Shown: positions 2,665-36,129 of the stretch, piece after piece | How positions within the stretch are numbered: the stretch's first letter is position 1 | Layout: each line of letters opens with the position of its first letter | Sequence record: OZ035736.1 | Source: Przondovirus NAN33P6 | DNA: 40,525 nucleotides | Strand: one strand, 5' to 3' | The notes under the pieces: generated by a model | The model's database searches: none | What the model was told of the DNA's origin: nothing | Seen by the model: the letters and a program-made list of their open reading frames with translations, nothing else | Position numbers and translations under genes: made by a program

Positions 2665-2687
2665 AATTAGGTAGCACTATAGGGAGA
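2665..2687 (+). promoter_or_regulatory. Phage RNAP promoter (phiOR-like, right end)
   Basis: AATTAGGTAGCACTATAGGGAGA; exact consensus 23-mer, +1 G at 2682. Confidence 0.85.
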
Positions 2688-2828
2688 GACCCCTAAAGAC
2701 TTACTATAAGAACACTTAAAGTTTCATTCATATAGTTATGCACTACAGGTCTCCTCTATGAGAGAGGGTAGTAATGATAATATCACCCTCTAACTATAAG
2801 ACACTAAGAGCTAACACAAGGAGGACCT

Positions 2829-2978
2829 ATGCGCTTACTGTTAACCTTACTGCGCCATAGGACTACTTGGCGGTTTCTGCTGGTACTTGCTGGTGCCCTT
2901 GGGGCTTCACTGGTTACTCAGCAACAACTCGGTGGACTGGAGACTCTCGTGTGCTCTCTACTCACTTGTAGCGATTAG
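2829..2978 (+). CDS. 19.5: T7 gp19.5 homolog (small protein of unknown function)
   Basis: 49 aa, below the ORF-track cutoff; MRLLLTLLRHRTTWRFLLVLAGALGASLVTQQQLGGLETLVCSLLTCSD resembles recalled T7 gp19.5 (ends ...SILTCSD); GGAGG RBS upstream. Confidence 0.75.
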   Translation: MRLLLTLLRHRTTWRFLLVLAGALGASLVTQQQLGGLETLVCSLLTCSD

Positions 2979-3059
2979 GGTCTTCCTGACGCGCTAGGGA
3001 TTCCGTAGTGATGCTTATCAGCATACACCACTCCATCCCTCTACAGTCAATACTTAAAG

Positions 3060-3440
3060 TTAACCTTAGGTGATTCACTGGGTCTACCTACGGGTCTATG
3101 CACTGACCTGAGGACTACCTGAGGTTACCTTTAAGAATTTTACATAAAGTTCTGAGTGTACATCTCACAGTTTAAACTTTTGGTTATCCCCCCGGTACCC
3201 TCCAGTTCACCCAAAGTAACCATAGGCCACCCCTAAACCTTCGGTTTAACCTTAGGTGGGACTGATGGGAAACCTGAGGTGATACTATATGTTGTGGTGA
3301 GTGGGACCTTGGGTGACTATATGTTGATGTCACTGTGTCCCTATCTGTTGGGCCTCTTTAAGTAACAACCTGAGGTTAGACCTGAGGCATCCACCTTAGG
3401 ACATCCTGAGGTAATACCTGAGACCATATACCTTAGGTTA
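3060..3440 (+). repeat. Array of about 10-12 CCT(G/T)AGG heptamers flanking the presumed genome end and terminal repeat
   Basis: CCTTAGG at 3064, 3250, 3394, 3431; CCTGAGG at 3107, 3118, 3273, 3369, 3381, 3405; variants CCTTCGG 3238, CCTTGGG 3307; positional analogue of the T7 CCTAAAG end repeats. Confidence 0.65.
3163..3350 (+). repeat. Probable direct terminal repeat (collapsed to one copy), with left genome end near 3163
   Basis: TCTCACAG at 3163-3170 resembles the T7 left-end start TCTCACAGTGTACGG; GTGTCCCTATCTGTT at about 3335-3350 resembles the T7 motif near the inner end of its 160-bp repeat; boundaries are estimates. Confidence 0.45.
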
Positions 3441-3506
3441 ACCATGGGCCATCCGGTGAGTCATTACTATAAGGCTATTGGGAGACCATTGTCAAATCAT
3501 CCAACC

Positions 3507-3529
3507 AATTAGGTAGCACTATAGGGAGA
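3507..3529 (+). promoter_or_regulatory. Phage RNAP promoter (phiOL-like, left end)
   Basis: AATTAGGTAGCACTATAGGGAGA exact consensus. Confidence 0.85.
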
Positions 3530-3608
3530 CACTTAAAGTGTTACTATGAGACCATCACCAATAAGAACACTATCACTATAGGTCTAACTAAAAGTTTAAC
3601 TTTGAGTG

Positions 3609-3637
3609 TTGACATTCAGATTCCGTTATGAGACATT
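3609..3637 (+). promoter_or_regulatory. Candidate host sigma70 early promoter (A1-like)
   Basis: TTGACA (3609-3614), 17-bp spacer, GACATT; same relative position as T7 A1 (TTGACT...GATACT); weak -10. Confidence 0.4.
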
Positions 3638-3743
3638 AGCAACCGTTGAGACAGACACAACGTTATCAACCACTAGCACACTTCGAGTTACTAGCTGGAT
3701 ACGGAAGGGTCTCAAGTAGCCATCAACCGGCATACGAAAATGG

Positions 3744-3772
3744 TTGACTCAACGATGCACAAGTAGTAACGT
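3744..3772 (+). promoter_or_regulatory. Candidate host sigma70 early promoter (A2-like)
   Basis: TTGACT (3744-3749), 17-bp spacer, TAACGT. Confidence 0.4.
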
Positions 3773-3861
3773 AGTAAGCAAGCAGTAACTAGCAGCACCG
3801 CTCTTTAACAATATGGATTAGTCAAAGCTGATATGTACACCATGACAATAGTGTTTAACTA

Positions 3862-3916
3862 GTGGCTACATTCGGGTCTCTGGCAAGGTACGTCCTGTCA
3901 CCCTGGGAGTAGCCAC
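3862..3916 (+). promoter_or_regulatory. Structured leader upstream of gene 0.3 (possible R0.3-type processing site)
   Basis: 8-bp inverted repeat GTGGCTAC (3862-3869) and GTAGCCAC (3909-3916) enclosing about 40 nt, just upstream of the gene 0.3 RBS. Confidence 0.3.
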
Positions 3917-3947
3917 GCTGATAACCACTAATTGAAGGATATACATC

Positions 3948-4415
3948 ATGATTTACACTAAAGAGCCAGCTAATAAAGTATTCGTATTCGTTACCGCTTA
4001 TCGTGGTCATGAGTCGCTCGAGGTTAACGAGAAGATGCTCAAGGGTCTCATTCGCACCATTAAGACCTATCCGGGTGCATATGGCAACATTCGTGATGAG
4101 CACGTGCAAGGCTGCTTTAAGGAAGATGGCATGCCTGAGGCAACACAAGAACGCACGCTCAAGGTTGAATGTACTGAGAAGCAAGCGGCAGAGCTGACGT
4201 GGTTGGCCTGTAAGACCTACTCGCAGGACGCTGTTCTGGTGGTGAACTCACAGACCCATACAGCCGCGCTATGGTCTATCGAGGATGTAGGCGAGTACCC
4301 ACAGGTCTACCCACGCTTGAAAGAGGTGTCCTTAGGTGGCACGCTGCAACAAGTGGACGCACCAAAGGGTGAATGCTATTCAATCATCGACGGGCAATAT
4401 TGGGAGGTGGTGTAA
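3948..4415 (+). CDS. 0.3: S-adenosylmethionine lyase (T3-type SAMase, anti-restriction), T3 gp0.3-like
   Basis: 155 aa; M.YTKEPA..VF......R.....EVN........RT....PG.YG......GC..E...ATQERT..V.C..KQAA.L...AC...QDAVLV.NSQTHTA.L resembles recalled T3 SAMase; unlike the T7 Ocr DNA mimic. Confidence 0.75.
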   Translation: MIYTKEPANKVFVFVTAYRGHESLEVNEKMLKGLIRTIKTYPGAYGNIRDEHVQGCFKEDGMPEATQERTLKVECTEKQAAELTWLACKTYSQDAVLVVNSQTHTAALWSIEDVGEYPQVYPRLKEVSLGGTLQQVDAPKGECYSIIDGQYWEVV

Positions 4416-4597
4416 TGGTCAAATATGGTCTCACTCAGCAGGAAATACACGAGTACCGCAGCGCCTTTAAGACGGCTTGCGAGTGCACTGCTGGCATACC
4501 TGAAGCAAAATCCGACTGGTTCTGCTACTACATGGCCCAAATGGCCCAGACCTATCGCACACGTAAGGTAATGTATGATAACCCTGTTCGTAATTAG
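4415..4597 (+). CDS. Small early protein, possibly T7 gp0.4-like
   Basis: 60 aa from the ATG overlapping the 0.3 stop (TAATG), GGAGGTGG RBS; MVKYGLTQQ...YMAQMAQ has weak resemblance to recalled T7 gp0.4 (VQYGLTAQ...AMAQ). Confidence 0.45.
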   Translation: MVKYGLTQQEIHEYRSAFKTACECTAGIPEAKSDWFCYYMAQMAQTYRTRKVMYDNPVRN

Positions 4598-4772
4598 TGT
4601 GTACGCCCTGATTGTCCTGTACTTTGTGCGGGACTTTCGTAAGGGTCTCAAGGTGCACAAAGCATCTTTCAGTTACATGAAGTGGGGCTTATTGCCTCGC
4701 TTTACTGTACGGCTACCTAATGGCCGCTTTAAGGCTAACAAAGTGGGGGTATTTTATGTTGCAACGCACTGA
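4575..4772 (+). CDS. Small hydrophobic early protein (hypothetical)
   Basis: 65 aa; N-terminal hydrophobic stretch ITLFVISVYALIVLYFV; in the gene 0.5/0.6 position; start uncertain. Confidence 0.35.
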   Translation: MITLFVISVYALIVLYFVRDFRKGLKVHKASFSYMKWGLLPRFTVRLPNGRFKANKVGVFYVATH

Positions 4773-4950
4773 GATACTGAAGGCACTATCTGAGCGGTAC
4801 CTTGCACCCGAGGGTGTACGAGTCCGGGTAATGGACTACACGGGAAACCCGCTGGCACCTGAGAAGGTAGCTTATCGCATCACCTTTACTTCGCTTGGAA
4901 GAAAGCACAGGGTAACATACTGGCCTAACACTGTAGGCTTCCAATCATAG
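4756..4950 (+). CDS. Small early protein (hypothetical, gene 0.6 position)
   Basis: 64 aa from internal ATG MLQRTEILKAL of ORF 4720..4950; precedes gene 0.7. Confidence 0.35.
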   Translation: MLQRTEILKALSERYLAPEGVRVRVMDYTGNPLAPEKVAYRITFTSLGRKHRVTYWPNTVGFQS

Positions 4951-4988
4951 CAATATCACCAATTCAATCTATACAAGGAAACAACCTA

Positions 4989-6002
4989 ATGAACTACACC
5001 GATATGCAAGCACGCTTAGACGCCATCCGTAACCTGCCAATCTGTGAACTCGACAAGCGCCAGCCGCTGCTGGTAGCACTCATCGCTGACATTGTGAACT
5101 GTGAGACGTCCGACGGTGACGATACGGACAGCGGTTGGGGTCTGGAATGTCAGGACTATTGGCAAACCCTGAAGATTAAGGCCAAGGACGCTGGGTTTAG
5201 CCTGCTGGGCAACGGTCACTTCAGCGCAGCGTTTAAGCACGAGCTGCTGCCGGGTAGGGTCATTAAGGTTGGCTTTAAGAAAGAGGACTCAGGGGCCGCC
5301 TACGTGGCTTTCTGCCGGATGAACCAAGGCCGGGTAGGGATTCCTAACGTCTATCACGTAGCGCGTCACGCTGGATGCTATACGGTGGTTCTGGATGAGC
5401 TGGAACCATGCAAGAGGCGCGACAACGAGACGCACGAGCATTACGCGGACCTAGCGAATTACTTTGTGGAGAACTCTGGTGCAGAGCTGGGAGATGTTGA
5501 CGGTGCAGAGAAGGAATTACCCTTCGTCGAGACGTGTCAAATGATTCACAAGTTCTTCTACGGGATTGCGTCTTTTGATATGCACAGCGGAAACATCATG
5601 TTCACCAAAGACGGCAAGCCAGTGATTACCGACCCGGTGTCATTCTCAGCGGACCGGGACCGTGAGCCTTTCTCACTGGAACCTGAGGAACTGCTCGCAG
5701 AGATTGAGCAGATAGCACACAATAAGATGATTGAACGTTGTAAGCGCAACAAGGCTAAGCGCGACCCGAACGGGGAGCTGCGCATCGCACGCCGTAAGGC
5801 AAACAAGGAACGTCGGGCACGTCGTAAGGCGCACGCTCGGTGGCGTAAGGAGCAGGAAAAGCGTGATGCCGAACTCTTAAAGTTTGACCTTGCGAAAGTC
5901 GAGGAGCGGGTACTGGCATGGCAGGTGGGACCCGGCCTAGCGATACAGCAAGGAAAGCCACTACCAATCGACAACTACCTTCAGGGTAGACTCATGGGCT
6001 AA
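4989..6002 (+). CDS. 0.7: Ser/Thr protein kinase with host transcription shut-off region, T7 gp0.7 homolog
   Basis: 337 aa; LPICELDKRQ, AGF.LLGNGHFSAA, RVIKVGFKKEDSGAAY.AFCRM.QGR.GIPNVY.V.RHAGCYTVVLD, FDMHSGNIMF, ITDPVSFS match recalled T7 gp0.7; basic K/R-rich C-terminus. Confidence 0.9.
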   Translation: MNYTDMQARLDAIRNLPICELDKRQPLLVALIADIVNCETSDGDDTDSGWGLECQDYWQTLKIKAKDAGFSLLGNGHFSAAFKHELLPGRVIKVGFKKEDSGAAYVAFCRMNQGRVGIPNVYHVARHAGCYTVVLDELEPCKRRDNETHEHYADLANYFVENSGAELGDVDGAEKELPFVETCQMIHKFFYGIASFDMHSGNIMFTKDGKPVITDPVSFSADRDREPFSLEPEELLAEIEQIAHNKMIERCKRNKAKRDPNGELRIARRKANKERRARRKAHARWRKEQEKRDAELLKFDLAKVEERVLAWQVGPGLAIQQGKPLPIDNYLQGRLMG

Positions 6003-6073
6003 CAAGGTGTATCTTAGGTGTCTCCAAACGGTGAGGCACCAATAGATAAACTTTATTCACAAAGAGGCACACA

Positions 6074-8794
6074 ATGAACGCATTAAACATTGCACGTAAT
6101 GACTTCTCAGAGATTGAACTAGCAGCTATCCCGTACAATATCCTCAGTGAGCACTATGGGGACAAGCTGGCACGTGAGCAGTTAGCACTGGAGCACGAGG
6201 CGTACGAGCTGGGTGAGCAGCGTTTCCTGAAGATGTTAGAACGTCAGGTGAAAGCTGGCGAGTTCGCTGACAACGTGGCCGCTAAACCGCTGGTCCTAAC
6301 GTTGCACCCGCAGCTGACCAAGCGTATTGACGACTGGAAGGAGGAGCAAGCAAACGCTCGCGGTAAGAAACCTCGCGCATACTACCCGATTAAGCACGGT
6401 GTGGCTTCTGAGTTAGCTGTTAGCATGGGCGCTGAGGTGCTCAAAGAGAAGCGCGGAGTGTCCAGTGAGGCAATCGCACTGCTAACCATCAAGGTCGTCT
6501 TAGGGACGCTCACAGACGCCTCAAAGGCCACAATCCAGCAGGTGTCCTCACAGTTAGGCAAGGCCCTTGAGGATGAGACCCGCTTCGGTCGTATCCGTGA
6601 GCAGGAAGCCGCATACTTCAAGAAGAACGTAGCGGACCAGCTGGACAAGCGAGTAGGCCACGTGTACAAGAAGGCTTTCATGCAGGTAGTCGAGGCCGAT
6701 ATGATATCCAAAGGGATGCTGGGCGGCGACAACTGGGCGAGCTGGAAAACTGACGAGCAGATGCACGTAGGGACCAAGCTGCTGGAGCTGCTTATCGAGG
6801 GGACTGGTCTGGTGGAAATGACCAAGAACAAGATGGCCGATGGCTCCGACGATGTGACCAGTATGCAGATGGTCCAGCTGGCTCCGGCGTTTGTGGAACT
6901 CCTGAGCAAACGAGCGGGCGCACTCGCGGGTATCAGTCCGATGCACCAGCCGTGCGTAGTCCCTCCGAAACCTTGGGTGGAGACTGTAGGCGGTGGCTAC
7001 TGGTCAGTCGGTCGTCGCCCTCTGGCACTGGTGCGTACCCACTCCAAGAAGGCGCTGCGCCGCTACGCAGACGTGCACATGCCCGAGGTATACAAGGCGG
7101 TCAACCTCGCGCAAAACACGCCGTGGAAGGTGAACAAGAAGGTGCTGGCGGTAGTCAACGAGATTGTCAACTGGAAGCACTGCCCGGTTGCTGACGTCCC
7201 AGCGATTGAACGTGAAGAGCTACCACCACGCCCGGACGATATTGACACCAACGAGGTGGCACGTAAGGCATGGCGCAAGGAGGCCGCAGCGGTCTACCGT
7301 AAGGACAAGGCCCGCCAGTCTCGCCGTTTGTCAATGGAGTTCATGGTCGCACAGGCCAACAAGTTCGCTAACCACAAGGCCATCTGGTTTCCTTACAACA
7401 TGGACTGGCGCGGACGTGTGTACGCTGTGAGCATGTTCAACCCGCAGGGTAACGACATGACCAAGGGTATGCTGACGCTGGCTAAGGGCAAGCCAATCGG
7501 TCTCGATGGGTTCTACTGGCTGAAGATTCATGGTGCAAACTGTGCAGGCGTCGACAAGGTTCCCTTCCCTGAGCGCATCAAGTTCATCGAAGAGAACGAG
7601 GGCAACATTCTGGCGAGTGCAGCTGACCCACTGAATAACACTTGGTGGACACAGCAGGATTCACCATTCTGTTTCTTAGCGTTTTGCTTCGAGTACGCAG
7701 GCGTTAAGCATCACGGCCTGAATTACAACTGCTCGCTGCCGCTGGCGTTCGATGGGTCATGCTCTGGGATTCAACACTTCAGCGCTATGCTCCGCGATTC
7801 CATCGGTGGTCGTGCGGTAAACCTGCTGCCATCTGATACCGTGCAGGATATCTACAAGATTGTGGCTGATAAGGTCAACGAGGTGCTCCACCAGCACGCT
7901 GTCAACGGGTCTCAGACGGTGGTCGAGCAGATTGCCGACAAGGAGACTGGCGAGTTCCGCGAGAAGGTAACGCTGGGTGAGTCCGTACTGGCTGCGCAGT
8001 GGTTGCAATACGGCGTGACCCGCAAGGTGACTAAGCGTTCGGTCATGACGTTGGCGTACGGTTCCAAAGAGTTCGGCTTCCGCCAGCAAGTTCTTGAGGA
8101 TACCATTCAGCCAGCTATTGACAACGGCGAGGGCTTGATGTTTACGCACCCTAACCAAGCGGCTGGCTACATGGCTAAGCTGATTTGGGACGCTGTGACC
8201 GTGACCGTAGTGGCCGCTGTCGAGGCGATGAACTGGCTGAAGTCTGCCGCTAAACTGCTGGCCGCTGAAGTCAAGGACAAGAAGACCAAAGAGGTGCTCC
8301 GTAAGCGCTGCGCAATCCACTGGGTAACACCAGACGGCTTCCCGGTGTGGCAGGAATACCACAAGCGTGACCAAGCGCGCCTGAAGCTGACGTTTCTGGG
8401 TCAGGCCAACGTGTTCATGACGTACAACAAAGGGGATACCAAAGAGATTGACGCACATAAGCAGGAGTCAGGAATCGCTCCTAACTTTGTGCACTCACAG
8501 GATGGTAGTCACCTGCGCATGACCGTAGTGCACGCCAACGAGGTCTACGGGATTGACTCCTTCGCGCTCATTCATGACTCCTTCGGGACCATTCCGGCAG
8601 ACGCTGGGAATCTCTTTAAGGCAGTCCGTGAGACGATGGTCAAGACCTACGAGGATAACGATGTAATCGCTGACTTTTATGACCAGTTCGCTGACCAGCT
8701 GCATGAGTCTCAACTGGACAAAATGCCTGCGGTCCCGGCCAAAGGTGACCTGAATCTGCGCGATATCTTAGAGTCTGACTTCGCGTTCGCCTAA
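6074..8794 (+). CDS. 1: Single-subunit DNA-dependent RNA polymerase, T7 gp1 family
   Basis: 906 aa; extensive near-identity to recalled T7 RNAP (AIWFPYNMDWRGRVYAVSMFNPQGNDMTKG, LPLAFDGSCSGIQHFSAMLRD, HDSFGT, C-terminal FAFA); specificity-loop region differs (RLKLTFLGQANVFMTYN versus T7 RLNLMFLGQFRLQPTIN). Confidence 0.97.
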   Translation: MNALNIARNDFSEIELAAIPYNILSEHYGDKLAREQLALEHEAYELGEQRFLKMLERQVKAGEFADNVAAKPLVLTLHPQLTKRIDDWKEEQANARGKKPRAYYPIKHGVASELAVSMGAEVLKEKRGVSSEAIALLTIKVVLGTLTDASKATIQQVSSQLGKALEDETRFGRIREQEAAYFKKNVADQLDKRVGHVYKKAFMQVVEADMISKGMLGGDNWASWKTDEQMHVGTKLLELLIEGTGLVEMTKNKMADGSDDVTSMQMVQLAPAFVELLSKRAGALAGISPMHQPCVVPPKPWVETVGGGYWSVGRRPLALVRTHSKKALRRYADVHMPEVYKAVNLAQNTPWKVNKKVLAVVNEIVNWKHCPVADVPAIEREELPPRPDDIDTNEVARKAWRKEAAAVYRKDKARQSRRLSMEFMVAQANKFANHKAIWFPYNMDWRGRVYAVSMFNPQGNDMTKGMLTLAKGKPIGLDGFYWLKIHGANCAGVDKVPFPERIKFIEENEGNILASAADPLNNTWWTQQDSPFCFLAFCFEYAGVKHHGLNYNCSLPLAFDGSCSGIQHFSAMLRDSIGGRAVNLLPSDTVQDIYKIVADKVNEVLHQHAVNGSQTVVEQIADKETGEFREKVTLGESVLAAQWLQYGVTRKVTKRSVMTLAYGSKEFGFRQQVLEDTIQPAIDNGEGLMFTHPNQAAGYMAKLIWDAVTVTVVAAVEAMNWLKSAAKLLAAEVKDKKTKEVLRKRCAIHWVTPDGFPVWQEYHKRDQARLKLTFLGQANVFMTYNKGDTKEIDAHKQESGIAPNFVHSQDGSHLRMTVVHANEVYGIDSFALIHDSFGTIPADAGNLFKAVRETMVKTYEDNDVIADFYDQFADQLHESQLDKMPAVPAKGDLNLRDILESDFAFA

Positions 8795-8804
8795 GGTCTA
8801 AGGC

Positions 8805-8827
8805 AATTAGGTAGCACTATAGGGAAC
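8805..8827 (+). promoter_or_regulatory. Phage RNAP promoter variant (upstream of ORF 8893)
   Basis: AATTAGGTAGCACTATAGGGAAC; -17..+4 consensus, +5/+6 differ; followed by hairpin GGAACCTTCG...CGAGGGTTCC at the transcript 5' end. Confidence 0.75.
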
Positions 8828-8892
8828 CTTCGAATGGCCGAGGGTTCCATTACTTAAAGTCTTAACTTAGAGAATACTTAAAGAGGCACATC

Positions 8893-9456
8893 ATGACTTA
8901 CTCAATAGTTGTAACCATCTTGTTAATCGTATTAATCGTCCTGTTCGTAAGGGCCGCCACACGCCTCGCTACCTGCGAGTACGCCCTTGAGAAGCAGGCC
9001 AAGAGTAACGAGGAGTACACAAACATCTTGCATGACAAAGTGTGTCGCCTGTCTGAAGATAAGGCAGCACTCAATAAGCAGGTGCGGTGGCTTGAGTCCA
9101 CGCTTAAGGAAGAAGAGCAGAAGGTGCGCGATGTGAATGAACTCCGAGAGCACCAGCGGGACCGCATGAAGTTCCTCCGCAAGTCACTGAAGGAAGCACA
9201 AGACGAGCTGATGATGGTCTCCGACCTGATTCACGTTAAGTTCACAGCTGTGTTGCCGGACGGTACCCACTCTAAGACGCTCTTTAAGTTAGGACTTGGG
9301 CCTTGTGGTCTGCACGTTAAGTCCCTGCGCTGGACCGAGCTGGATGACCGCTATCTGATAGACCAGCTGTGCACCAACGGTGAGCGCAAGCAGTTCGTCT
9401 ACTACAAGAGCGAAGTAGTAGGCCGCATCGAGTTCCGCCACGGTAAGTTTGAATAA
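8893..9456 (+). CDS. Hypothetical early protein with N-terminal TM helix and coiled-coil (no T7 counterpart recognised)
   Basis: 187 aa; AAGAGG RBS; hydrophobic TILLIVLIVLFV followed by a charged heptad-like region; sits between gene 1 and gene 1.1. Confidence 0.7.
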   Translation: MTYSIVVTILLIVLIVLFVRAATRLATCEYALEKQAKSNEEYTNILHDKVCRLSEDKAALNKQVRWLESTLKEEEQKVRDVNELREHQRDRMKFLRKSLKEAQDELMMVSDLIHVKFTAVLPDGTHSKTLFKLGLGPCGLHVKSLRWTELDDRYLIDQLCTNGERKQFVYYKSEVVGRIEFRHGKFE

Positions 9457-9475
9457 GGTAGCACTATAGGAACAT
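9453..9475 (+). promoter_or_regulatory. Degenerate phage promoter-like element (phi1.1-like)
   Basis: AATAAGGTAGCACTATAGGAACA; keeps the GGTAGCACTATAGG core but diverges at -14 and +3..+6. Confidence 0.45.
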
Positions 9476-9515
9476 ACTCAAGGTCATCGTCTGGTGGCCT
9501 TCATGAATGTCCCTT
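9470..9515 (+). promoter_or_regulatory. Putative RNase III processing hairpin (R1.1-like)
   Basis: ACTCAAGGTCATCGTCTGGTGGCCTTCATGAATG, close to the recalled T7 R1.1 substrate. Confidence 0.6.
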
Positions 9516-9539
9516 ACTATCGCAATCAGGAGTAACATC

Positions 9540-9716: not shown

Positions 9717-9719
9717 CAA

Positions 9720-9986
9720 ATGGCCGAGCAAACTAAATGGTTGTTTGACGGTAGCACTTCGCAGTGGTCACGATTGGGTGCCACAGAGCGCAGGTTGATG
9801 GACGAGACGGGACTACGTGTAATCATGACGTACCGCCCATTCAACCGCACAGTGCTATTCTCTGTGTATGAACCTCGCCCGGATTACGACGAGGTGCTCG
9901 TGGAGAAGACCTTCAGTCGCTGGTCGATTGACTCAGCGTCAGACTGGCTGGCAAAACTCACAGCCGACTACTCAAGTTGGAAATGA
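9720..9986 (+). CDS. 1.2: Probable gp1.2 (inhibitor of host dGTPase) by position and size
   Basis: 88 aa; same position and length class as T7 gp1.2 and ends in WK like recalled gp1.2; similarity otherwise weak. Confidence 0.55.
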   Translation: MAEQTKWLFDGSTSQWSRLGATERRLMDETGLRVIMTYRPFNRTVLFSVYEPRPDYDEVLVEKTFSRWSIDSASDWLAKLTADYSSWK

Positions 9987-10007
9987 TTAGGTAGCACTAT
10001 AGGCAGA
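9985..10007 (+). promoter_or_regulatory. Phage RNAP promoter variant (phi1.3-like)
   Basis: TGATTAGGTAGCACTATAGGCAG; +3 C differs from consensus. Confidence 0.6.
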
Positions 10008-10048: not shown

Positions 10049-10086
10049 TGCACACTAAATGAACACTACACTTCGGAGACATCATC

Positions 10087-11145
10087 ATGATGAACATTAA
10101 GACTAATCCATATAAGGCCGTTTCATACGTACGCTCTGCTATCGAGAAGGCGCTGGAGACTTCCGGTTACCTCATCGCAGACACTAAGCACGATGGGGTT
10201 CGCGGGAACATTTGCGTAGACAACACGGCCAACGCAGCGTGGCTCAGCCGGGTCTCCAAGACCATTCCGGCGCTTGAGCACCTCAACGGTTTCGACCAGC
10301 GCTGGCAGAAGTTACTGAAAGATGACCGCTGGATTTTCCCTGATGGCTTTATGCTTGATGGCGAACTCATGGTAAAGGGCGTAGACTTCAACACCGGGTC
10401 TGGCCTGCTGCGTACCAAGTGGCTCAAGAAATACAACATGGAGTACCACAACGTGTCAGTAACACCAGACATGCTGAAGCCTCGCAAGGTTGGCGTTGCT
10501 AAGCGTGTTCGTACCGAGTTTAGACTATCCACCGCGCACCTAAAAGTTGTCCTCTACGATATCATTCCGCTTGACATTATCGAGTCAGGTGATGACTACA
10601 ACGTGATGACCCTCCTCCGCCTTGAGCACGTCAAGGTAGCCTTACCAGTCCTGCAAGACCACTTCCCCGAAGTCGAGTGGTGCCTCTCGGAGTCCCATGA
10701 AGTTTACGACATGGACGAACTCGATGCGCTTTACCGACAGAAACGAGAAGAAGGTCATGAAGGTCTGGTGGTTAAGGACCCTCGCGGTATCTATAAGCGC
10801 GGTAAGAAGTCCGGCTGGTGGAAGCTGAAGCCAGAGAACGAGGCTGACGGTGTAGTTGTGGGACTCAACTGGGGAACTCCCGGTCTTGCCAACGAGGGCA
10901 AGGTGATTGGCTTCGAGGTTCTCCTTGAGTCAGGTCGCGTGGTCTCCGCTAACAACATCTCTCAGGCACTTATGGAGGAGTTCACCTCTGCGGTACTAAC
11001 TCAGGAACTGAACGGAGACACTCAGGCGTATATTGGCTGGGCGTGCCAAATCAAGTACATGGAGGAAACTCCAGATGGCTCCCTGCGTCACCCATCGTTC
11101 GACAAATGGCGTGGCACCGAGGCTGACCCTACCACCAAGATGTAA
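10087..11145 (+). CDS. 1.3: ATP-dependent DNA ligase, T7 gp1.3 homolog
   Basis: 352 aa; MMNIKTNP.KAVS.V.SAI.KAL...GYLIA..K.DGVRGNICVDNTAN..WLSRVSKTIPALEHLNGFD, EGLVVKDP, SLRHPSF match recalled T7 ligase (active-site K in KHDGVRG). Confidence 0.95.
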   Translation: MMNIKTNPYKAVSYVRSAIEKALETSGYLIADTKHDGVRGNICVDNTANAAWLSRVSKTIPALEHLNGFDQRWQKLLKDDRWIFPDGFMLDGELMVKGVDFNTGSGLLRTKWLKKYNMEYHNVSVTPDMLKPRKVGVAKRVRTEFRLSTAHLKVVLYDIIPLDIIESGDDYNVMTLLRLEHVKVALPVLQDHFPEVEWCLSESHEVYDMDELDALYRQKREEGHEGLVVKDPRGIYKRGKKSGWWKLKPENEADGVVVGLNWGTPGLANEGKVIGFEVLLESGRVVSANNISQALMEEFTSAVLTQELNGDTQAYIGWACQIKYMEETPDGSLRHPSFDKWRGTEADPTTKM

Positions 11146-11166
11146 TTAGGTAGCACTATAGGAGAC
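11144..11166 (+). promoter_or_regulatory. Phage RNAP promoter variant
   Basis: AATTAGGTAGCACTATAGGAGAC; initiating run is GG rather than GGG. Confidence 0.65.
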
Positions 11167-12316: not shown

Positions 12317-12339
12317 CATTAGGTAGCACTATAGGGACA
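12317..12339 (+). promoter_or_regulatory. Phage RNAP promoter variant (phi2.5-like)
   Basis: TCATTAGGTAGCACTATAGGGAC; followed by 5' hairpin GGGACACAGGTTGTCCC. Confidence 0.7.
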
Positions 12340-12380
12340 CAGGTTGTCCCTCTTACTGTTTAAACTTAAGGAGATTCATC

Positions 12381-13984: not shown

Positions 13985-14007
13985 CATTAGGTAGCACTAC
14001 AGGGAGA
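13985..14007 (+). promoter_or_regulatory. Phage RNAP promoter variant (phi4-like)
   Basis: ACATTAGGTAGCACTACAGGGAGAC; C at -2 (TACA instead of TATA). Confidence 0.6.
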
Positions 14008-20702: not shown

Positions 20703-20725
20703 AATTAGGTAGCACTATAGGGAAG
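20703..20725 (+). promoter_or_regulatory. Phage RNAP promoter (phi6.5-like) embedded in a hairpin
   Basis: AATTAGGTAGCACTATAGGGAAG; flanked by inverted repeat GGGCACT (20695-20701) and AGTGCCC (20724-20730). Confidence 0.75.
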
Positions 20726-21527: not shown

Positions 21528-23135
21528 ATGGCAGAAGTTAAACTCGAAGGCTTCGCAGAGGAGGGAGCCAAGGCGGTATACGACCGTCTGAAGAACGACC
21601 GACAGCCTTACGAGACACGAGCAGAGTCCTGTGCGCAGTACACGATTCCCTCACTGTTCCCTAAGGATTCCGATAACGCATCGACCGATTACACGACTCC
21701 GTGGCAATCCGTAGGTGCTCGCGGGCTGAACAACCTAGCGTCCAAGCTGATGCTGGCCCTGTTCCCGATGCAATCATGGATGAAGTTGACCATTAGCGAA
21801 TACGAAGCGAAGAACCTTCTGGGTGACGCCGAGGGTCTCGCTAAGGTCGATGAGGGCCTCTCAATGGTAGAGCGCATCATCATGAACTACATCGAGTCCA
21901 ACAGTTATCGAGTGACTCTCTTTGAGTGCTTGAAGCAACTGTGTGTGGCTGGCAACGCGCTGCTTTACTTACCGGAGCCTGAGGGTTATACCCCGATGAA
22001 GCTCTATCGGCTGAACTCGTATGTGGTCCAGCGAGACGCTTTCGGTAACGTGCTCCAGATTGTCACACTCGACAAGATTGCGTTCAATGCGCTCCCTGAA
22101 GACGTTCGTGGTCAGGTGGAAGCGGCTCAAGGTGAGCAGAAGGAAGACGCTGAGATTGACGTCTACACCCACGTGTACCTGAACGAAGCCGGGGATGGCT
22201 ACTCGAAGTACGAAGAGGTTGCCGAAGAGGTAGTTCCGGGCAGTGAGGCCGAGTACCCGCTCGAAGAGTGTCCGTACATTCCGGTCCGCATGGTCCGCAT
22301 CGACGGTGAATCCTACGGTCGTTCCTACGTGGAAGAGTATCTGGGCGACCTCAAGTCCCTAGAGAACCTGCAAGAGTCCATCGTTAAGATGGCGATGATT
22401 ACCGCTAAGGTTATCGGTCTGGTAGACCCGGCAGGTATCACTCAGGTTCGCCGACTCACAGCAGCACAGTCTGGTGCGTTCGTACCGGGCCGTAAGCAGG
22501 ACATTGAGTTCCTCCAGCTGGAGAAGTCCGGCGACTTTACCGTAGCGAAGAACGTAAGCGACACCATTGAGGCGCGCCTCTCGTATGCCTTTATGCTCAA
22601 CAGTGCGGTACAACGTACAGGCGAGCGAGTCACAGCCGAAGAGATTCGGTACGTGGCGTCAGAGCTGGAAGATACCCTAGGTGGTGTCTACTCGATTCTC
22701 TCACAGGAACTCCAGCTGCCTCTGGTAAGAGTGCTCTTGAAGCAACTACAAGCCACGCAGCAAATCCCGGAGTTACCTAAAGAGGCCGTCGAGCCAACTA
22801 TCAGCACTGGCCTTGAGGCTATCGGACGTGGGCAGGACCTTGACAAGCTGGAGCGCTGCATTGCTGCATGGTCAGCTCTTAAGTCCCTCGAAGGCGATGA
22901 TGACCTCAACTTGGCTAACCTCAAGTTACGCATCGCTAACGCTATCGGACTCGACACTGCTGGTATGCTTCTCACTCAGGAGCAGAAGAATGCCCTTATG
23001 GCACAGCAAGGCGCTCAGATTGCTACACAGCAAGGGGCCGCAGCGTTGGGTCAGGGGATGGCCGCACAGGCTACTGCAAGTCCTGAAGCGATGGCCGCTG
23101 CGGCTGATTCAGTCGGTATGCAACCGGGCATGTAA
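21528..23135 (+). CDS. 8: Portal (head-tail connector) protein, T7 gp8 homolog
   Basis: 535 aa; long identical runs to recalled T7 gp8 (YTIPSLFPKDSDNASTDY.TPWQ.VGARGLNNLASKLMLALFPMQ, VQRTGERVTAEEIRYVASELEDTLGGVYSILSQELQLPLVRVLLKQLQATQQIPELPKEAVEPTISTGLEAIGRGQDLDKLERC). Confidence 0.97.
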   Translation: MAEVKLEGFAEEGAKAVYDRLKNDRQPYETRAESCAQYTIPSLFPKDSDNASTDYTTPWQSVGARGLNNLASKLMLALFPMQSWMKLTISEYEAKNLLGDAEGLAKVDEGLSMVERIIMNYIESNSYRVTLFECLKQLCVAGNALLYLPEPEGYTPMKLYRLNSYVVQRDAFGNVLQIVTLDKIAFNALPEDVRGQVEAAQGEQKEDAEIDVYTHVYLNEAGDGYSKYEEVAEEVVPGSEAEYPLEECPYIPVRMVRIDGESYGRSYVEEYLGDLKSLENLQESIVKMAMITAKVIGLVDPAGITQVRRLTAAQSGAFVPGRKQDIEFLQLEKSGDFTVAKNVSDTIEARLSYAFMLNSAVQRTGERVTAEEIRYVASELEDTLGGVYSILSQELQLPLVRVLLKQLQATQQIPELPKEAVEPTISTGLEAIGRGQDLDKLERCIAAWSALKSLEGDDDLNLANLKLRIANAIGLDTAGMLLTQEQKNALMAQQGAQIATQQGAAALGQGMAAQATASPEAMAAAADSVGMQPGM

Positions 23136-23156
23136 TTAGGTAGCACTATAGGGAGA
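23134..23156 (+). promoter_or_regulatory. Phage RNAP promoter (phi9-like)
   Basis: AATTAGGTAGCACTATAGGGAGA exact consensus. Confidence 0.85.
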
Positions 23157-23250: not shown

Positions 23251-24207
23251 ATGGCTGGCGAATCTAACGCAGACGTATACGCATCCTTCGGTGTCAACAG
23301 TGCTGTACTGACTGGTAGTACACCTGAGGAGCACCAAGAAAACATGTTGGCTCTTGATGTTGCTGCCCGTGATGGCGATGATGCAATCGAGCTGAACACC
23401 AACAGTGATGACCTGTATGGCTCCGATGTGGACCCGTTCGGTGAACCTGAAGAGGGCCGAATGCAGGTCCGTATCTCCGCTGACGGTTCAGACGAACAGG
23501 AAGGCGAAGAGGGTCAGGGTGATGAAGAACAGCAGGGCGATGAAGAGAGTCAGTCGGAGGAAGTAACCGACGATGGTGAACCTGAAGAGTTCAAGCCTAT
23601 TGGCGAAACTCCGGCTGACATCAACGAAGCCTCTCAGCAGCTGGAAGAACACGAAGCTGGCTTTAACGACATGGTTGCCACTGCAATAGAACGCGGTCTC
23701 TCACAGGATGCTGTGACCCGTATTCAGCAGGAGTACCAGAACGAAGACAGTTTGTCCGATGAGTCTTACCGAGAGCTGGCCGAGGCGGGCTACAGTAAGG
23801 CGTTCGTCGATGCGTACATTCGTGGTCAGGAAGCTCTGGTCAACCAGTACGTAGAGAAAGTGATGGACTTCGTGGGAGGCCGTGAGCGCTTCCAGCAGGT
23901 CTACAGCCACATGCAGACCAATAACCATGAGGGTGCCGAGGCGCTCATCAAGGCTTTTGAGTCTCGTGATGTAGCCACCATGAAGACGATTCTGAACCTA
24001 GCGGGACAGTCTCGTGATAAAACCTTTGGTAAGAAAGCTGAACGCTCTATTGCCAAGCGTGCTACCCCAGCGAAACCTGTGGCCCGTAAAGCTGAAGGCT
24101 TCGAGTCTCAGGCTGAGATGATTAAAGCTATGTCAGACCCACGTTACCGCACCGACTCCAAGTACCGTCGTGAAGTGGAACAGAAGGTTATCGACTCTAA
24201 GTTTTAA
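23251..24207 (+). CDS. 9: Capsid assembly (scaffolding) protein, T7 gp9 homolog
   Basis: 318 aa from ATG 23251 (AAGGAG RBS); SNADVYASFGVNSAV, ENMLALDVAARDGDDAIEL, acidic middle, C-terminal MIKAMSDPRYRTD..YRR.VEQKVIDS match T7 gp9. Confidence 0.93.
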   Translation: MAGESNADVYASFGVNSAVLTGSTPEEHQENMLALDVAARDGDDAIELNTNSDDLYGSDVDPFGEPEEGRMQVRISADGSDEQEGEEGQGDEEQQGDEESQSEEVTDDGEPEEFKPIGETPADINEASQQLEEHEAGFNDMVATAIERGLSQDAVTRIQQEYQNEDSLSDESYRELAEAGYSKAFVDAYIRGQEALVNQYVEKVMDFVGGRERFQQVYSHMQTNNHEGAEALIKAFESRDVATMKTILNLAGQSRDKTFGKKAERSIAKRATPAKPVARKAEGFESQAEMIKAMSDPRYRTDSKYRREVEQKVIDSKF

Positions 24208-24228
24208 TTAGGTAGCACTATAGGGAGA
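24206..24228 (+). promoter_or_regulatory. Phage RNAP promoter (phi10-like)
   Basis: AATTAGGTAGCACTATAGGGAGA exact consensus; followed by an unusually long leader of about 210 nt before gene 10. Confidence 0.85.
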
Positions 24229-25751: not shown

Positions 25752-25763
25752 AACTAAGCCAAA

Positions 25764-25801
25764 CCCCTTGGGGACCACTCACGGTCTCTGAGGGGTTTTT
25801 T
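25764..25801 (+). terminator. T-phi-like intrinsic terminator downstream of gene 10
   Basis: CCCCTTGGGGACCACTCACGGTCTCTGAGGGG hairpin followed by TTTTTT; close to recalled T7 T-phi. Confidence 0.85.
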
Positions 25802-25818
25802 CGTTAGGAGCTTACATT

Positions 25819-28795: not shown

Positions 28796-28821
28796 CTGAA
28801 CGTCTCCCTGTGGTGTTGCTC

Positions 28822-28844
28822 AATTAGGTAGCACTATAGGGAGA
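28822..28844 (+). promoter_or_regulatory. Phage RNAP promoter (phi13-like)
   Basis: AATTAGGTAGCACTATAGGGAGA exact consensus. Confidence 0.85.
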
Positions 28845-28867
28845 CCACACTAAGAGGGACTTAAAGC

Positions 28868-29278: not shown

Positions 29279-29280
29279 CT

Positions 29281-32126: not shown

Positions 32127-32142
32127 CCATTAAGGAGACAAC

Positions 32143-35100
32143 ATGAGCTACGATAAGTCTAAACCTAGCGATTACGATGGCATCTTCCAGAAGGCAGCAG
32201 ACTCTCATGGGGTCTCCTATGACCTCCTGCGTAAGTTATCGTTTAACGAATCATCCTTCAACCCTAAGGCCGTCTCTAAGACTGGCCCTAAGGGCATCAT
32301 GCAGTTCACCCGCAACACGGCCCGAGCGATGGGCCTTAACGTGACAGACGGTGACGACGATGGGCGCTACAACCCTGAGTTAGCCATTGACGCTGGTGCT
32401 AAGCTGCTTGCGAGCCTCGTTAAGAAGTACAATGGGGATGAGCTGAAAGCAGCCCTAGCGTACAACCAAGGGGAAGGCCCAGCGGGTGCTCCCCAGCTCC
32501 AAGCGTACGACAAGGGAGACTTCGGGTCTATCTCGGAGGAAGGTCGTAACTACATGCGCAAGCTGCTGGATGTGGCCAAGAGTCCGAACTCAGGCGCACT
32601 GGAGGCGTTCGGTGGCATCACCCCAAAGGGTAAAGGGATTCCCGCAGAGGATGCCTTCAAGGGCATCGCTAAGGCTGGAAAGGTTGGTACCGAACTGCCG
32701 GAGTCCCATGGGTTCGACGTTGAAGGTGTAGCGCAGGAAGCGCCCAACACTCCGTACGCTAAGGACTTCTGGGAGAAGACCGGGACGACTCTCGACGAGT
32801 ATAACGCTCGGTCAACCTTCTTCGGGTTCGGGGATGCGGCTGAAGCTCAGATTCAGAACTCCACATTAGGTGTGGCCTTCCGTGCTGCGCGTGCCGACGA
32901 TGGGTATGATGTGTTCAAGGACACGATGACCCCGACTCGCTGGAACTCTTATGTTCCATCCAAGGAAGACTTGCAGAAGCTGCGCGACTCTGGGTTACCT
33001 CCGAGTTACTACGGTGTGGTGACTGGTGGTGACGGCGAGAACTGGGATGCACTCATCAAGCTGGCCAAGGATAACTTCGAGGCTGACCAACGGGCCGCTG
33101 AGGCTGGTACTGGGGCGAAACTCGCTGCTGGTATCGTTGGTGCTGGTGTAGACCCACTAAGCTATGCACCTCTGGTCGGTGTGGCCGGGAAAGGACTCAA
33201 GGTGGTCAATAAGGCCCTGCGAGTAGGCGCACAGGCTGGAGCACTCAGTGTTGCCTCTGAGGGAATCCGTACGTCAGTAGCTGGTGGTGAAGCTCACTAC
33301 GCTGATGCAGCACTTGGCGGGTTACTGTTCGGTGCTGGCATGTCGGCTCTTAGTGACGCTGTGGCCGCTGGTATCCGCAAGGCTCGTGGAGTAGACTCCG
33401 TGAATGAGTTCGCTGGTCCAGCACTCCGCATGGAAGCACGAGAGACTGCCATAAACACTGGGGGTCACGACACCTCGACTCTACCTCCAGAGAACTTCTC
33501 GTTCGAGCAGGGCCACAGAGGTGTTCCGTTCGCCGACCACCCGACCGAAGAGGGCGCAGTGGTTCTGGCTAATGGTTCCATCCTGAGCGATACCAACCCG
33601 CTTAACCCAAGGACTCAACGTGACTTCGCAGAGATTGACCCAGAGCGTGCAGCCCCCGGTATCAGGCTCGGTGGGTTCACTGAGATTGGCCTGAAGACCT
33701 TAGGGTCCAAGGATGCTGGTGTTCGTGCAATCGCTCAGGACCTCGTGCGCTCTCCAACAGGGATGCAATCAGGGTCTAGTGGTAAGTTCGGGGCTACAGC
33801 TTCGGACATCCATGAGCGGCTCCATGCGACTGACCAACGGATGTACAACCAACTGTATGACGCTGTTGACCGCGCCATGAAGGACCCAGAGTTCTCCGTG
33901 GGTGAGCAGAAGATGTCACGCAGAGCCATCCGTCAGGAAGTCTACAAGCGTGCTGCCTTGGCGATTGAGCGCCCAGAGTTACAGGCTGATTTGACCAAAG
34001 GTGAACGTGAGGTGATGGACCTGCTGAAGGAGCACTTCGACACCAAGCGTGAACTGATGGAACAGCCGGGTATCTTCGGTAACGCTAACGCCGTGAGCAT
34101 CTTCCCCGGTAGTCGACACAAGGGTACCTACGTGCCTAACGTGTACGACAGGGGCGCTAAGGAACTGATGATGCAGAAGCTGGGTGGACCTGAAGGGCTC
34201 CAACAGGCAATCGCTCAGAGCTGGCTCACCAGTTACCGAGTGCGTCCTGAGGTCAAGGCACGTGTCGACGAGTACCTTATGGAACTCAACGGCTACAAGT
34301 CGGTAGACCAAGTGACACCTGAGGTGGTCCAGAAGCACGCCATTGACAAGGCTTACGGTATCAGTCACACAGAGGACTTCACAGCGTCCAGCGTCATTGA
34401 CGACAACATCACAGGTCTGGTCGGTATCGAGAACAACTCGTTCCTTGAAGCCCGTAACATGTTCGACAGCGACATCCCGGTCACCTTGCCGGACGGGTCA
34501 ACCTTCAGTGTCAACGACCTGAGGGACTTCGATATGGCACGGATTATCCCAGCGTACGACCGTCGAGTTAACGGTGATATCTCCATCATGGGTGGCAGTG
34601 GGAAGACCACGAAGCAGCTCAAGGACGAAATCATGGCGTTAGACAAGCGGGCCGAACGTAAGGGGCAACTGAAGGGTGAAGTGGAAGCGCTGAAGGACAC
34701 CGTTAAGATTCTCACTGGGCGTGCTCGACGTAACAACGATACAGCCTTTGAGACGGCTATGCGTTCCCTGAATGATCTAGCGTTCTTCGCTAAGAACTTC
34801 TACATGGGTCCGCAGAACCTCACAGAGATTGCTGGGATGTTGGCTAAGGGTAACGTTAAGGCGATGCTACACGGTATCCCAACGTTGCGAGACCTCGCCA
34901 CCAGAACCTCTCCGGTGTCGGGTAGTGAACTTCGTGAACTCCATGGGGCGCTGTTCGGTAAGGAACTCGACCAGTTAATCCGTCCTGGACGTGAGGACAT
35001 CGTACAGCGAATCCGTGAGGCTTCCGATACCAGTGGAGCCATGGCGTCAGTCATTGGTACCATTAAGTTCGGCACTCAGGAGCTGTCAGCACGCTCTCCT

Positions 35101-36108
35101 TGGACCAAGATGTTGAATGGTACAGCCAACTACATTCTGGACACTGCCCGTCAAGGTGTGCTCGGTGATGTGGCTGGTGCGGCCCTAGGCGGTAAGGGTT
35201 CCAAGTTTGGTAAAGAGAACTTCCTCAAAGCTGCCTCTATCAGTCCTGAGCAGTGGAAGGGCATCAAGCAACTCTTTGTCGACCACGCGACTCGTGACGC
35301 TAACGGCCAGTTCACCATCAAGGACAAGAAGGCTTTCAGTCAGGACCCGAGAGCGATGGACCTGTGGCGTCTTGCCGATAAGGTTGCCGACGAGACCATG
35401 CTACGGCCTCACAAGGTATCACAGCAGGATTCCAAGGCGTACGGTGCTGGTGTCAAGATGGCTATGCAGTTCAAGAACTTCACCATCAAGTCACTCAACG
35501 CTAAGTTCATTCGGTCCTTCTATGAGGGCTACAAGAACAACCGCGCTATCGACATGGCATTGACCCACATCCTGTCACTCGGTATAGCCGGGACTTACTA
35601 TGCGATGCAGGCCCACGTGAAGGCTTACGGTCTCCAAGAGTCTCAACGTAAGGACTACCTGAAGAAAGCCCTGAACCCGACCATGCTGGTGTACGCAGCG
35701 TTGACTCGAAGTTCCCACATTGGTGCCCCGCTGTCCATCGTCTCGATGATTGCAGGTGCCGCTGGGTTCCAAGATGCAAACATGCTGCGCTCCACCATCT
35801 TGCCTAAGGAGGAACAGTTCCAGAAGAAAGGCGGGGCGTCCAAAGGTCGGGCTGAGTCGAGTAACCTTGCGGGTAACCTAGGGTCTCAGGTCCCGGCTCT
35901 TGGTTACGTAGGGAACGTCATTGCGACCGCTAAGAACGCCTACGGTGTTGTTACAGCACCCAATAAGCCGACTGAGCGCGACTACATGACTGGCCTGATG
36001 AACTCCACTAAGGAGCTTGTGCCGAACGACCCGCTGACCCAACAGCTCATAATGAAAATCTATGAGGCTAACGGAGTAACCATCAAACAGCAGCCTAAAC
36101 CCAACTAA
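32143..36108 (+). CDS. 16: Internal virion (core) protein D with N-terminal lytic transglycosylase domain, T7 gp16 homolog
   Basis: 1321 aa; PSDYDG.FQKAAD..GVSYDLLRK, TGP.G.MQFT (transglycosylase motif region), KAALAYNQGEG, long conserved central and C-terminal runs (ARSPWTK.LNGT.NY.LD.ARQG, DPLTQQL..KIYEANGV). Confidence 0.95.
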   Translation: MSYDKSKPSDYDGIFQKAADSHGVSYDLLRKLSFNESSFNPKAVSKTGPKGIMQFTRNTARAMGLNVTDGDDDGRYNPELAIDAGAKLLASLVKKYNGDELKAALAYNQGEGPAGAPQLQAYDKGDFGSISEEGRNYMRKLLDVAKSPNSGALEAFGGITPKGKGIPAEDAFKGIAKAGKVGTELPESHGFDVEGVAQEAPNTPYAKDFWEKTGTTLDEYNARSTFFGFGDAAEAQIQNSTLGVAFRAARADDGYDVFKDTMTPTRWNSYVPSKEDLQKLRDSGLPPSYYGVVTGGDGENWDALIKLAKDNFEADQRAAEAGTGAKLAAGIVGAGVDPLSYAPLVGVAGKGLKVVNKALRVGAQAGALSVASEGIRTSVAGGEAHYADAALGGLLFGAGMSALSDAVAAGIRKARGVDSVNEFAGPALRMEARETAINTGGHDTSTLPPENFSFEQGHRGVPFADHPTEEGAVVLANGSILSDTNPLNPRTQRDFAEIDPERAAPGIRLGGFTEIGLKTLGSKDAGVRAIAQDLVRSPTGMQSGSSGKFGATASDIHERLHATDQRMYNQLYDAVDRAMKDPEFSVGEQKMSRRAIRQEVYKRAALAIERPELQADLTKGEREVMDLLKEHFDTKRELMEQPGIFGNANAVSIFPGSRHKGTYVPNVYDRGAKELMMQKLGGPEGLQQAIAQSWLTSYRVRPEVKARVDEYLMELNGYKSVDQVTPEVVQKHAIDKAYGISHTEDFTASSVIDDNITGLVGIENNSFLEARNMFDSDIPVTLPDGSTFSVNDLRDFDMARIIPAYDRRVNGDISIMGGSGKTTKQLKDEIMALDKRAERKGQLKGEVEALKDTVKILTGRARRNNDTAFETAMRSLNDLAFFAKNFYMGPQNLTEIAGMLAKGNVKAMLHGIPTLRDLATRTSPVSGSELRELHGALFGKELDQLIRPGREDIVQRIREASDTSGAMASVIGTIKFGTQELSARSPWTKMLNGTANYILDTARQGVLGDVAGAALGGKGSKFGKENFLKAASISPEQWKGIKQLFVDHATRDANGQFTIKDKKAFSQDPRAMDLWRLADKVADETMLRPHKVSQQDSKAYGAGVKMAMQFKNFTIKSLNAKFIRSFYEGYKNNRAIDMALTHILSLGIAGTYYAMQAHVKAYGLQESQRKDYLKKALNPTMLVYAALTRSSHIGAPLSIVSMIAGAAGFQDANMLRSTILPKEEQFQKKGGASKGRAESSNLAGNLGSQVPALGYVGNVIATAKNAYGVVTAPNKPTERDYMTGLMNSTKELVPNDPLTQQLIMKIYEANGVTIKQQPKPN

Positions 36109-36129
36109 TTAGGTAGCACTATAGGGAGA
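36107..36129 (+). promoter_or_regulatory. Phage RNAP promoter (phi17-like)
   Basis: AATTAGGTAGCACTATAGGGAGA exact consensus; transcript starts with GGGAGACC...GGTTTCCC inverted repeat. Confidence 0.85.

Follow-up and report, generated by a model that had tools for sequence, protein, structure and literature searches.

Two matched types of RNA polymerase specificity loop and promoter in Klebsiella phages of the genus Przondovirus

The genome of the Klebsiella phage Przondovirus NAN33P6 (sequence record OZ035736.1; 40,525 nucleotides, referred to here in its whole length as the window) carries thirteen copies of a 23-bp repeat and encodes a T7-type single-subunit RNA polymerase, the product of gene 1. 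Comparing these repeats and the polymerase with those of related phages, we found that the genus Przondovirus contains two polymerase/promoter types. Type A, the form of phages K11 and KP32, has (G/A)C(A/C) at promoter positions -10 to -8, and type B, the form of the window, has TAG. The promoter type agreed with the type of the polymerase specificity loop in all 17 genomes compared, nine of type B and eight of type A. Fixed differences between the types are found only in the loop and in the promoter triplets; elsewhere the genomes are mosaic. The thirteen repeats are very probably promoters of the phage's own polymerase, within a genus that holds two types which would be at least partly incompatible. 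We also lean, by a small degree, towards a more specific reading, in which a derived polymerase loop arose jointly with the switch of all thirteen promoters, yielding a near-isogenic orthogonal pair that selection keeps matched; positions -10 and -9 would then be read without a change in the residues that correspond to T7 N748 and R756, and a phenylalanine would act at the equivalent of T7 Q758.

A pattern search of the window with AATTAGGTAGCACTATAGGGAGA, allowing at most three mismatches, returned 12 sites, each of them on the + strand, where 100 shuffled sequences led to an expectation of none. Six of these copies were exact, five had two mismatches and one had three (Table 1). In the six imperfect copies, the mismatches fell mostly on the first base or on +3 to +6, the exceptions being -14 in the copy starting at 9452 and -2 in the copy at 13985. 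The thirteenth site, at 11144 (ending in …CACTATAGGAGAC), is complete in its upstream part and was missed by the ungapped match because one G of the GGG run at +1 is absent. The block TAGGTAGCACTA was present exactly at 12 sites and with a single mismatch at 9455, had no copy on the - strand, and the bases at -12 to -8 are GGTAG at all 13 sites. An open reading frame (ORF) starts 40 to about 240 nt downstream of each of them. A preliminary description of the window had reported thirteen copies, all on the + strand and in front of genes. The mismatch search, with the 1-nt gap allowed for 11144, and the ORF positions bore this out; twelve of the start positions it gave were right, and the one placed at 9453 is in fact 9452.

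The thirteen sites correspond one to one in position, with nearly identical flanks, to the 13 promoters annotated in the K11 record, namely phiOL, 1.05, 1.1, 1.3, 1.6, 2.5, 4, 6.5, 9, 10, 13, 17 and phiOR. The two phages also have the same quirks at the same promoters: a missing G in phi1.6, a C at -2 in phi4 and a GGC start in phi1.3. Perfect copies stand at phiOL, at phiOR and at the four late promoters (9, 10, 13 and 17), and the seven imperfect ones belong to the DNA-metabolism genes, from 1.05 to 6.5. In T7, the late promoters are strong and the middle promoters weaker, an arrangement that the perfect late and imperfect middle copies of the window mirror. The assignment of the repeats as promoters thus builds on thirteen + strand sites where none is expected by chance, on the match with K11, on a catalytically intact polymerase and on a terminator behind the capsid gene. 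It is scarcely credible that the repeats are a signal of another kind, for instance sites for replication, for packaging or for a host factor: their -7 to +6 core is the same as that of T7-group promoters, every copy lies on the coding strand ahead of genes, their positions are those of the annotated K11 promoters, and the KP32 versions drive polymerase-dependent GFP expression (PMC13580328). Two copies of the core alone, without -17 to -8, were also noticed, at 2731-2753 (…CACTACAGGTCTC) and 3564-3586 (…CACTATAGGTCTA). They sit just downstream of phiOR and phiOL, respectively, and the phiOL-side copy is also found in K11 (536) and KP32 (374).

The type A promoter, AATTAGG(G/A)C(A/C)CACTATAGGGAGA, was found in K11, KP32 and six more phages, and the type B promoter, AATTAGGTAGCACTATAGGGAGA, in the window and eight more. 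The two differ only at -10, -9 and -8; the AT-rich stretch at -17 to -13, the GG at -12/-11 and the core from -7 to +6 are common to both. The promoters of the window accordingly lack the K11-type GG(G/A)C(A/C) at -12 to -8 and match K11 in the remaining promoter bases and in position. The triplet of type A occurs in the sub-variants GCA, ACA, ACC and GCC, which are largely specific to the promoter position across phages. Type B is uniformly TAG, with phiOL as the exception: it has a T at -8 (GGTAT) in 12 stretches from IMG/VR and in five of the nine type B genomes. The phiOL of the window has G at -8, and among type B promoters only phiOL varies recurrently within the specificity block.

The gene 1 protein is 74% identical to the polymerase of T7 and 98.5% identical to that of K11. 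Its best solved relative is T7 RNA polymerase (1CEZ/1QLN), matched over the full length, and the catalytic residues D560, D835, K654, Y662 and H834 (T7 D537, D812, K631, Y639 and H811) are kept. At the DNA level, gene 1 is 95-96% identical to its best matches among Klebsiella przondoviruses, with KpV92 at the top (96.4%); its identity to the references K11 and KP32 is 93%. Across the 17 genomes, the types show fixed differences at exactly nine of the 906 amino acid positions, every one of them within the specificity loop (residues 762-793; T7 739-770). From type A to type B, they are R763H, Q765R, N766D, V773T, K781F, T786K/R, K788D/E, D789T/S/A and S790K, corresponding to T7 K740, P742, I743, M750, Q758, T763, K765, D766 and S767. 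With H763, R765, D766, T773, F781 (codon at nt 8414-8416), K786, D788, T789 and K790, the loop of the window differs from the K11-type loop at all nine positions. The divergence in amino acids between the types is 26% over codons 761-795, as opposed to 0.7-2.3% over the rest of gene 1. One further residue, A373G, appeared type-linked in the first four genomes and was dropped as a candidate, being not fixed among the 17.

The polymerase specificity loop enters the promoter's major groove at -12 to -7. It is established from the T7 promoter complex, and summarised in PMC11880802, that Q758 reads -8, R756 reads -9 and N748 reads -11/-10. Because the Q758 equivalent differs between the types (K781F), the change at -8 has an obvious partner, unlike those at -10 and -9. 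The other equivalents are alike in both types: T7 R746 is conserved, N748 is represented by K771 and R756 by N779. The hairpin's alternating pattern would place V773T on the DNA-facing side, next to K771. At the loop's base, seven changes (763, 765, 766, 786 and 788-790) exchange charges and leave the net charge unchanged, which hints at a hairpin that may have been re-set. Type B is the derived state, since type A has R763, T786, K788, D789 and S790 in common with T7 and/or T3, that is, five of the nine positions.

The 34 differences in 180 nt between the window and K11 raised the possibility of an ancient or imported loop allele. We rejected this explanation because the four-fold silent divergence between the types (0.33) is the same as that within type A (0.33) and lies near, or little above, the average of the gene. 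Furthermore, translated and nucleotide searches of the phage collection found no closer loop outside the genus. By these divergences, what marks the loop is a burst of replacement changes rather than great age. Separately, the last ~550 nt of gene 1 (8240-8794, loop included) differ at a single site between the window and KpV92, against ~4 sites per 90 nt elsewhere, suggesting that this segment was recently exchanged.

Type B is not peculiar to the window. A translated search of the phage collection with a 52-residue loop region found loop B in 233 records (94-100% identity), all from Klebsiella phages, and loop A in 149 (82.7% identity), with no intermediates; a nucleotide search with the loop gave the same split. 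By this count, ~60% of the sequenced genus is of type B. Its loop is HKRDQARLKLTFLGQANVFMTYNKG(D/E)(T/S/A)K, and that of the window is identical to the loops of KpV92, IL33 and Oda. The type B references include KpV289, IL33, SH-Kp 152410, 2044-307w, KN4-1 and Saitama. The first three, the earliest-named phages of this type, are species recognized by the ICTV, and the IL33 record already carries a software-predicted promoter annotation. KP32_isolate 194, 195 and 196 carry the type B loop, and isolate 195, which we inspected, has GGTAG promoters. At least 120 stretches in IMG/VR contain the type B motif, mostly on contigs of ~40 kb. The preliminary description had suggested that the window's phage may have an orthogonal specificity of its own, on the grounds that GGTAG differs from the -12 to -8 blocks of T7 (CGACT), T3 (ACCCT), K11 (GGGCA) and SP6 (GGTGA). 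These comparison blocks agree with the records, K11 having GGACA and GGACC as well, and GGTAG does differ from all of them, in the case of K11 only at -10 to -8 with the same GG at -12/-11. The specificity is not the phage's own, given the 233 records with the loop and GGTAG promoters in all nine loop B genomes inspected.

The types could be compared along the genome in 16 genomes aligned to the window. Each of fifteen complete genomes aligned over 33-36 kb, with identities of 91-93%; the sixteenth was a 26-kb segment of KpV92, of which 25 kb aligned at 94% identity. The identity of the window to type A genomes (91.0-92.5%) overlapped that to type B genomes (91.5-94.1%). Per kilobase, the mean distance between the types equalled that within the types, except at 8-10 kb, where the loop and three promoters are located, and in 8 of 37 segments the window was closest to a type A phage. 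Nevertheless, 51 positions had a base present in every type B genome and in no type A genome, and these were -10 to -8 of ten promoters, the loop and a few nearby bases. The three remaining promoters fail this rule only through coverage, a misaligned phi10 row or phi4 of phage K5. In a looser count, asking only that the types have no base in common and limited to common polymorphic sites, with 39 promoter and 105 loop bases as targets, the types were perfectly separated at 46 of 64 target sites versus 13 of 2,615 sites elsewhere (Fisher p = 2e-72). None of these 13 lies more than about 100 nt away from the loop or a promoter. The scan of sites across the 17 genomes detected no further type-linked loci, for instance at the polymerase-binding lysozyme or the host-polymerase inhibitor.

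Some type-separating bases outside the promoters deserve mention. Substitutions at 2756, 2757, 2759, 2762 and 2792 lie 75-110 nt past the start of phiOR, outside any promoter, and may have hitch-hiked or mark an element interacting with the polymerase. The dinucleotide at 12366-12367, in the leader of gene 2.5 ahead of the ribosome-binding site, is ACTTAAGGAG in type B and ACCAAAGGAG in type A, and in IMGVR_UViG_3300045988_000695, a recombinant contig, it moves together with the promoter.

Matched triplets and loops in otherwise mosaic genomes argue that the match between polymerase and promoters is kept by selection, and if selection keeps the sets matched, the two types should be at least partly incompatible. 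We propose that each polymerase would discriminate against the promoters of the other type strongly enough for mismatched recombinants usually to be lost, and it is from this population pattern that we infer orthogonality of the two pairs. If TAG were instead a neutral variant of the K11 promoter, both polymerases would read both types equally and the correlation would simply record descent within clades. The 98.5% identity of the polymerases, the sameness of K771 and N779 in both types, and K5, which pairs a type A polymerase with one GGTAG promoter, speak for such neutrality. However, clade descent sits badly with mosaic genomes whose distances between types are about those within types nearly everywhere, with stretches in which a type A phage is the nearest neighbour, and with the concentration of type-tracking sites in promoters and loop. 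Thirteen unlinked three-base blocks in phase with one 84-nt gene segment would not be expected under neutral recombination, and all nine replacements fall in the loop, where the divergence in amino acids is 26% against about 1.5% elsewhere. We therefore regard neutrality as improbable.

Promoters of the wrong type were rare in both directions. In the eight type A genomes, GGTAG occurred at one of 107 promoter-like sites, phi4 of K5, whose downstream flank is common to the type B phage KP32_i195 and to no other type A genome compared. In 120 IMG/VR stretches chosen for carrying a type B promoter, 2 of 301 promoter-like sites were of type A. One is phi4 of the type B contig IMGVR_UViG_2974610969_000001 (4666), with GGGCA, and the other phi2.5 of the type B contig IMGVR_UViG_3300045988_000695 (8091), with GGACA together with a type A leader; both look like short imported tracts. 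All three full mismatches, in K5 and the two contigs, concern promoters of middle genes that lie downstream of other promoters. In addition, K5 and Serratia phage KKP 3708, both of type A, have GGTCA, with T at -10, at phi1.3. The GGTAG and GGTCA promoters of these two phages may be intermediates or tolerated mismatches.

Discrimination could also be one-sided. One enzyme, most plausibly that of type A, would then be relaxed at -10 and -8 and use both sets, and the type B enzyme would be strict. The promoters themselves give this some substance, as those of type A vary at -10 (G/A, occasionally T) and at -8 (A/C), those of type B are invariantly TAG save for the T at -8 of phiOL, and type A phages tolerate GGTCA (K5 and KKP3708) and GGTAG (K5). 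On the other hand, the type A promoters at phi4 and phi2.5 of the two type B contigs imply tolerance both ways, and with a relaxed type A enzyme recombination should have filled type A genomes with GGTAG, which stands at only 1 of their 107 sites. We hold one-sided discrimination to be possible, though rather unlikely.

Several points weigh against mutually discriminating types. The 17 genomes of the association scan were picked by the author out of 382. Positions -10 and -9 differ between the types, yet K771 and N779, at the places of N748 and R756 that are thought to read them, are the same in both. The mismatches that persist suggest either cross-recognition or that single middle-gene promoters are dispensable. 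Transcription data for type B phages were not found in the literature searched.

Table 1. Promoter equivalents and associated features of the window. Mismatches are counted against AATTAGGTAGCACTATAGGGAGA.
Feature	Position	Strand	Mismatches	Remarks
Small terminase gene	30-287
Large terminase gene	827-2584
phiOR equivalent	2665..2687	+	0	Behind the gene for the large terminase subunit; aligned to K11 phiOR at 40503
phiOL equivalent	3507..3529	+	0	Precedes the early region; aligns with K11 phiOL at 479
Gene 1, T7-type single-subunit RNA polymerase	6074..8794	+		906 aa; Pfam RNA_pol, RPOL_N
Specificity loop, residues 762-793 (T7 739-770)	8357..8452	+		Holds all nine type-fixed residues
phi1.05 equivalent	8805..8827	+	2	…GGGAAC
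phi1.1 equivalent	9452..9474	+	3	AATAAGGTAGCACTATAGGAACA; aligned to K11
phi1.3 equivalent	9985..10007	+	2	GATTAGGTAGCACTATAGGCAGA; precedes the ligase gene
phi1.6 equivalent	11144..11166	+	1-nt gap	AATTAGGTAGCACTATAGGAGAC; one G short at the start site, likewise in K11
phi2.5 equivalent	12317..12339	+	2	Precedes the ssDNA-binding protein gene
phi4 equivalent	13985..14007	+	2	…CACTACAGGGAGA; precedes the primase/helicase gene
phi6.5 equivalent	20703..20725	+	2	Aligned to K11
phi9 equivalent	23134..23156	+	0	Precedes the scaffolding gene
phi10 equivalent	24206..24228	+	0	Precedes the major capsid gene
T-phi-like intrinsic terminator	25761..25808 or 25761-25798	+		16-pair stem, then T run; after the capsid gene; at the position of K11 phiTE
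phi13 equivalent	28822..28844	+	0
phi17 equivalent	36107..36129	+	0	Precedes the tail-fibre gene

The window is the whole genome of a K11/KP32-like Klebsiella podophage, circularly permuted and written from the small terminase gene. Behind the terminase genes lie phiOR and phiOL and next the early genes; then come the polymerase gene, the genes of DNA metabolism and, last, the structural genes. This K11/KP32-like gene order and the high genome-wide nucleotide identity place the phage in Przondovirus. The terminal repeat that lies between phiOR and phiOL in K11 is presumably collapsed to a single copy in the window. In the position of the gp0.7 serine/threonine kinase of K11 and KpV92, a 337-residue ORF (4989-6002) gave no Pfam match at E<=0.001. 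Two receptor-binding genes, at 36171-40302, encode proteins of 843 and 528 residues. The larger begins with a T7 tail-fibre N-terminus and has one weak pectate-lyase-like Pfam match, below threshold; the smaller has no Pfam match. Past ~37 kb, these genes had no nucleotide match among the 16 przondoviruses compared, and they probably represent a different set of capsule depolymerases.

As judged from sequence comparison, type B is a specificity distinct from those of K11, T7, T3 and SP6, and it belongs, with a matching loop, to most of a well-sampled genus. If the two enzymes discriminate, type B would offer a 98.5%-identical polymerase as a ready partner for that of K11 or KP32 in multi-channel expression and in vitro transcription, and the nine loop changes would be a short list for transplanting the specificity. 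The change at -10/-9 with constant reader residues, together with a phenylalanine at the position reading -8, would moreover probe the rule of three key residues. Matched sets in a freely recombining genus would, if the reading is true, clearly exemplify selection against hybrid genomes, with a bearing on how phage lineages separate. The same consideration touches the design of cocktails and recombinant Klebsiella phages, where a chimera with mixed promoters may express poorly.

The promoters of the window belong to the T7 group, as 23-bp elements (-17 to +6) with a CACTATAG-type core, repeated far above chance. Literature text searches returned no characterised polymerase with an identical promoter consensus, which the preliminary description had named as one of two findings that would contradict it. 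The strings GGTAGCACTATAGG and TAGGTAGCACTA retrieved no paper, and CACTATAGGGAGA combined with Klebsiella retrieved nothing relevant. Searches on Przondovirus promoters and on KpV289 found no promoter analysis, and the polymerase-mining papers PMC13029058 and PMC11477551 do not include a Klebsiella enzyme of type B. Zhu et al. (NAR 2025; PMC11880802) mined T7-like pairs and arranged them in 24 groups by residues 748, 756 and 758, linked to -12 to -8, with KNK-GGGCC, which corresponds to type A, used as one orthogonal pair. In that scheme, type B would be KNF-GGTAG. Neither KNF nor GGTAG appears in the main text of that paper, and type B may well already be listed among its groups. The three-residue code, as set out there, does not fit the change at -10/-9 in the window, which comes without a change at 748 or 756.

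The polymerase of KP32, a phage of the same genus, has the 20-residue N-terminal insertion in common with that of the window, and KP32 differs in being of type A. Its promoters were found by homology to those of T7 in intergenic regions, and its polymerase was tested on GGGCA, GGACC and GGACA only, without GGTAG (PMC13580328, RNA 2026). K11 (consensus AATTAGGGCACACTATAGGGAGA; NC_011043) resembles the window in genus, gene order, the thirteen promoter positions and promoter bases -17 to -11 and -7 to +6. At 98.5% identity, its polymerase also agrees with that of the window in the residues standing for T7 R746, N748 and R756. K11 differs in having (G/A)C(A/C) in place of TAG, in the nine loop residues, including K781F and V773T, and in that K11-type promoters come in three or four position-specific sub-variants whereas those of the window are uniform. 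The promoter of SP6 (AATTAGGTGACACTATAGAAGAG) has the GGT at -12 to -10 and the CACTATAG core in common with type B; it differs at -9/-8, with GA instead of AG, and in the start region, and the loop of the SP6 polymerase has no recognisable similarity in the alignment. T7 and T3 have related polymerases and promoters that differ at -12 to -10, and the promoter set of each phage fits its own enzyme. Types A and B resemble this pair in that a short block read by the loop differs, at -10 to -8 rather than -12 to -10. T7 and T3, however, belong to different genera, their polymerases are 82% identical and the switch between them is largely N748D. The enzymes of types A and B, in contrast, are 98.5% identical and constant at the equivalents of N748 and R756, and their phages recombine freely outside the loop and the promoters.

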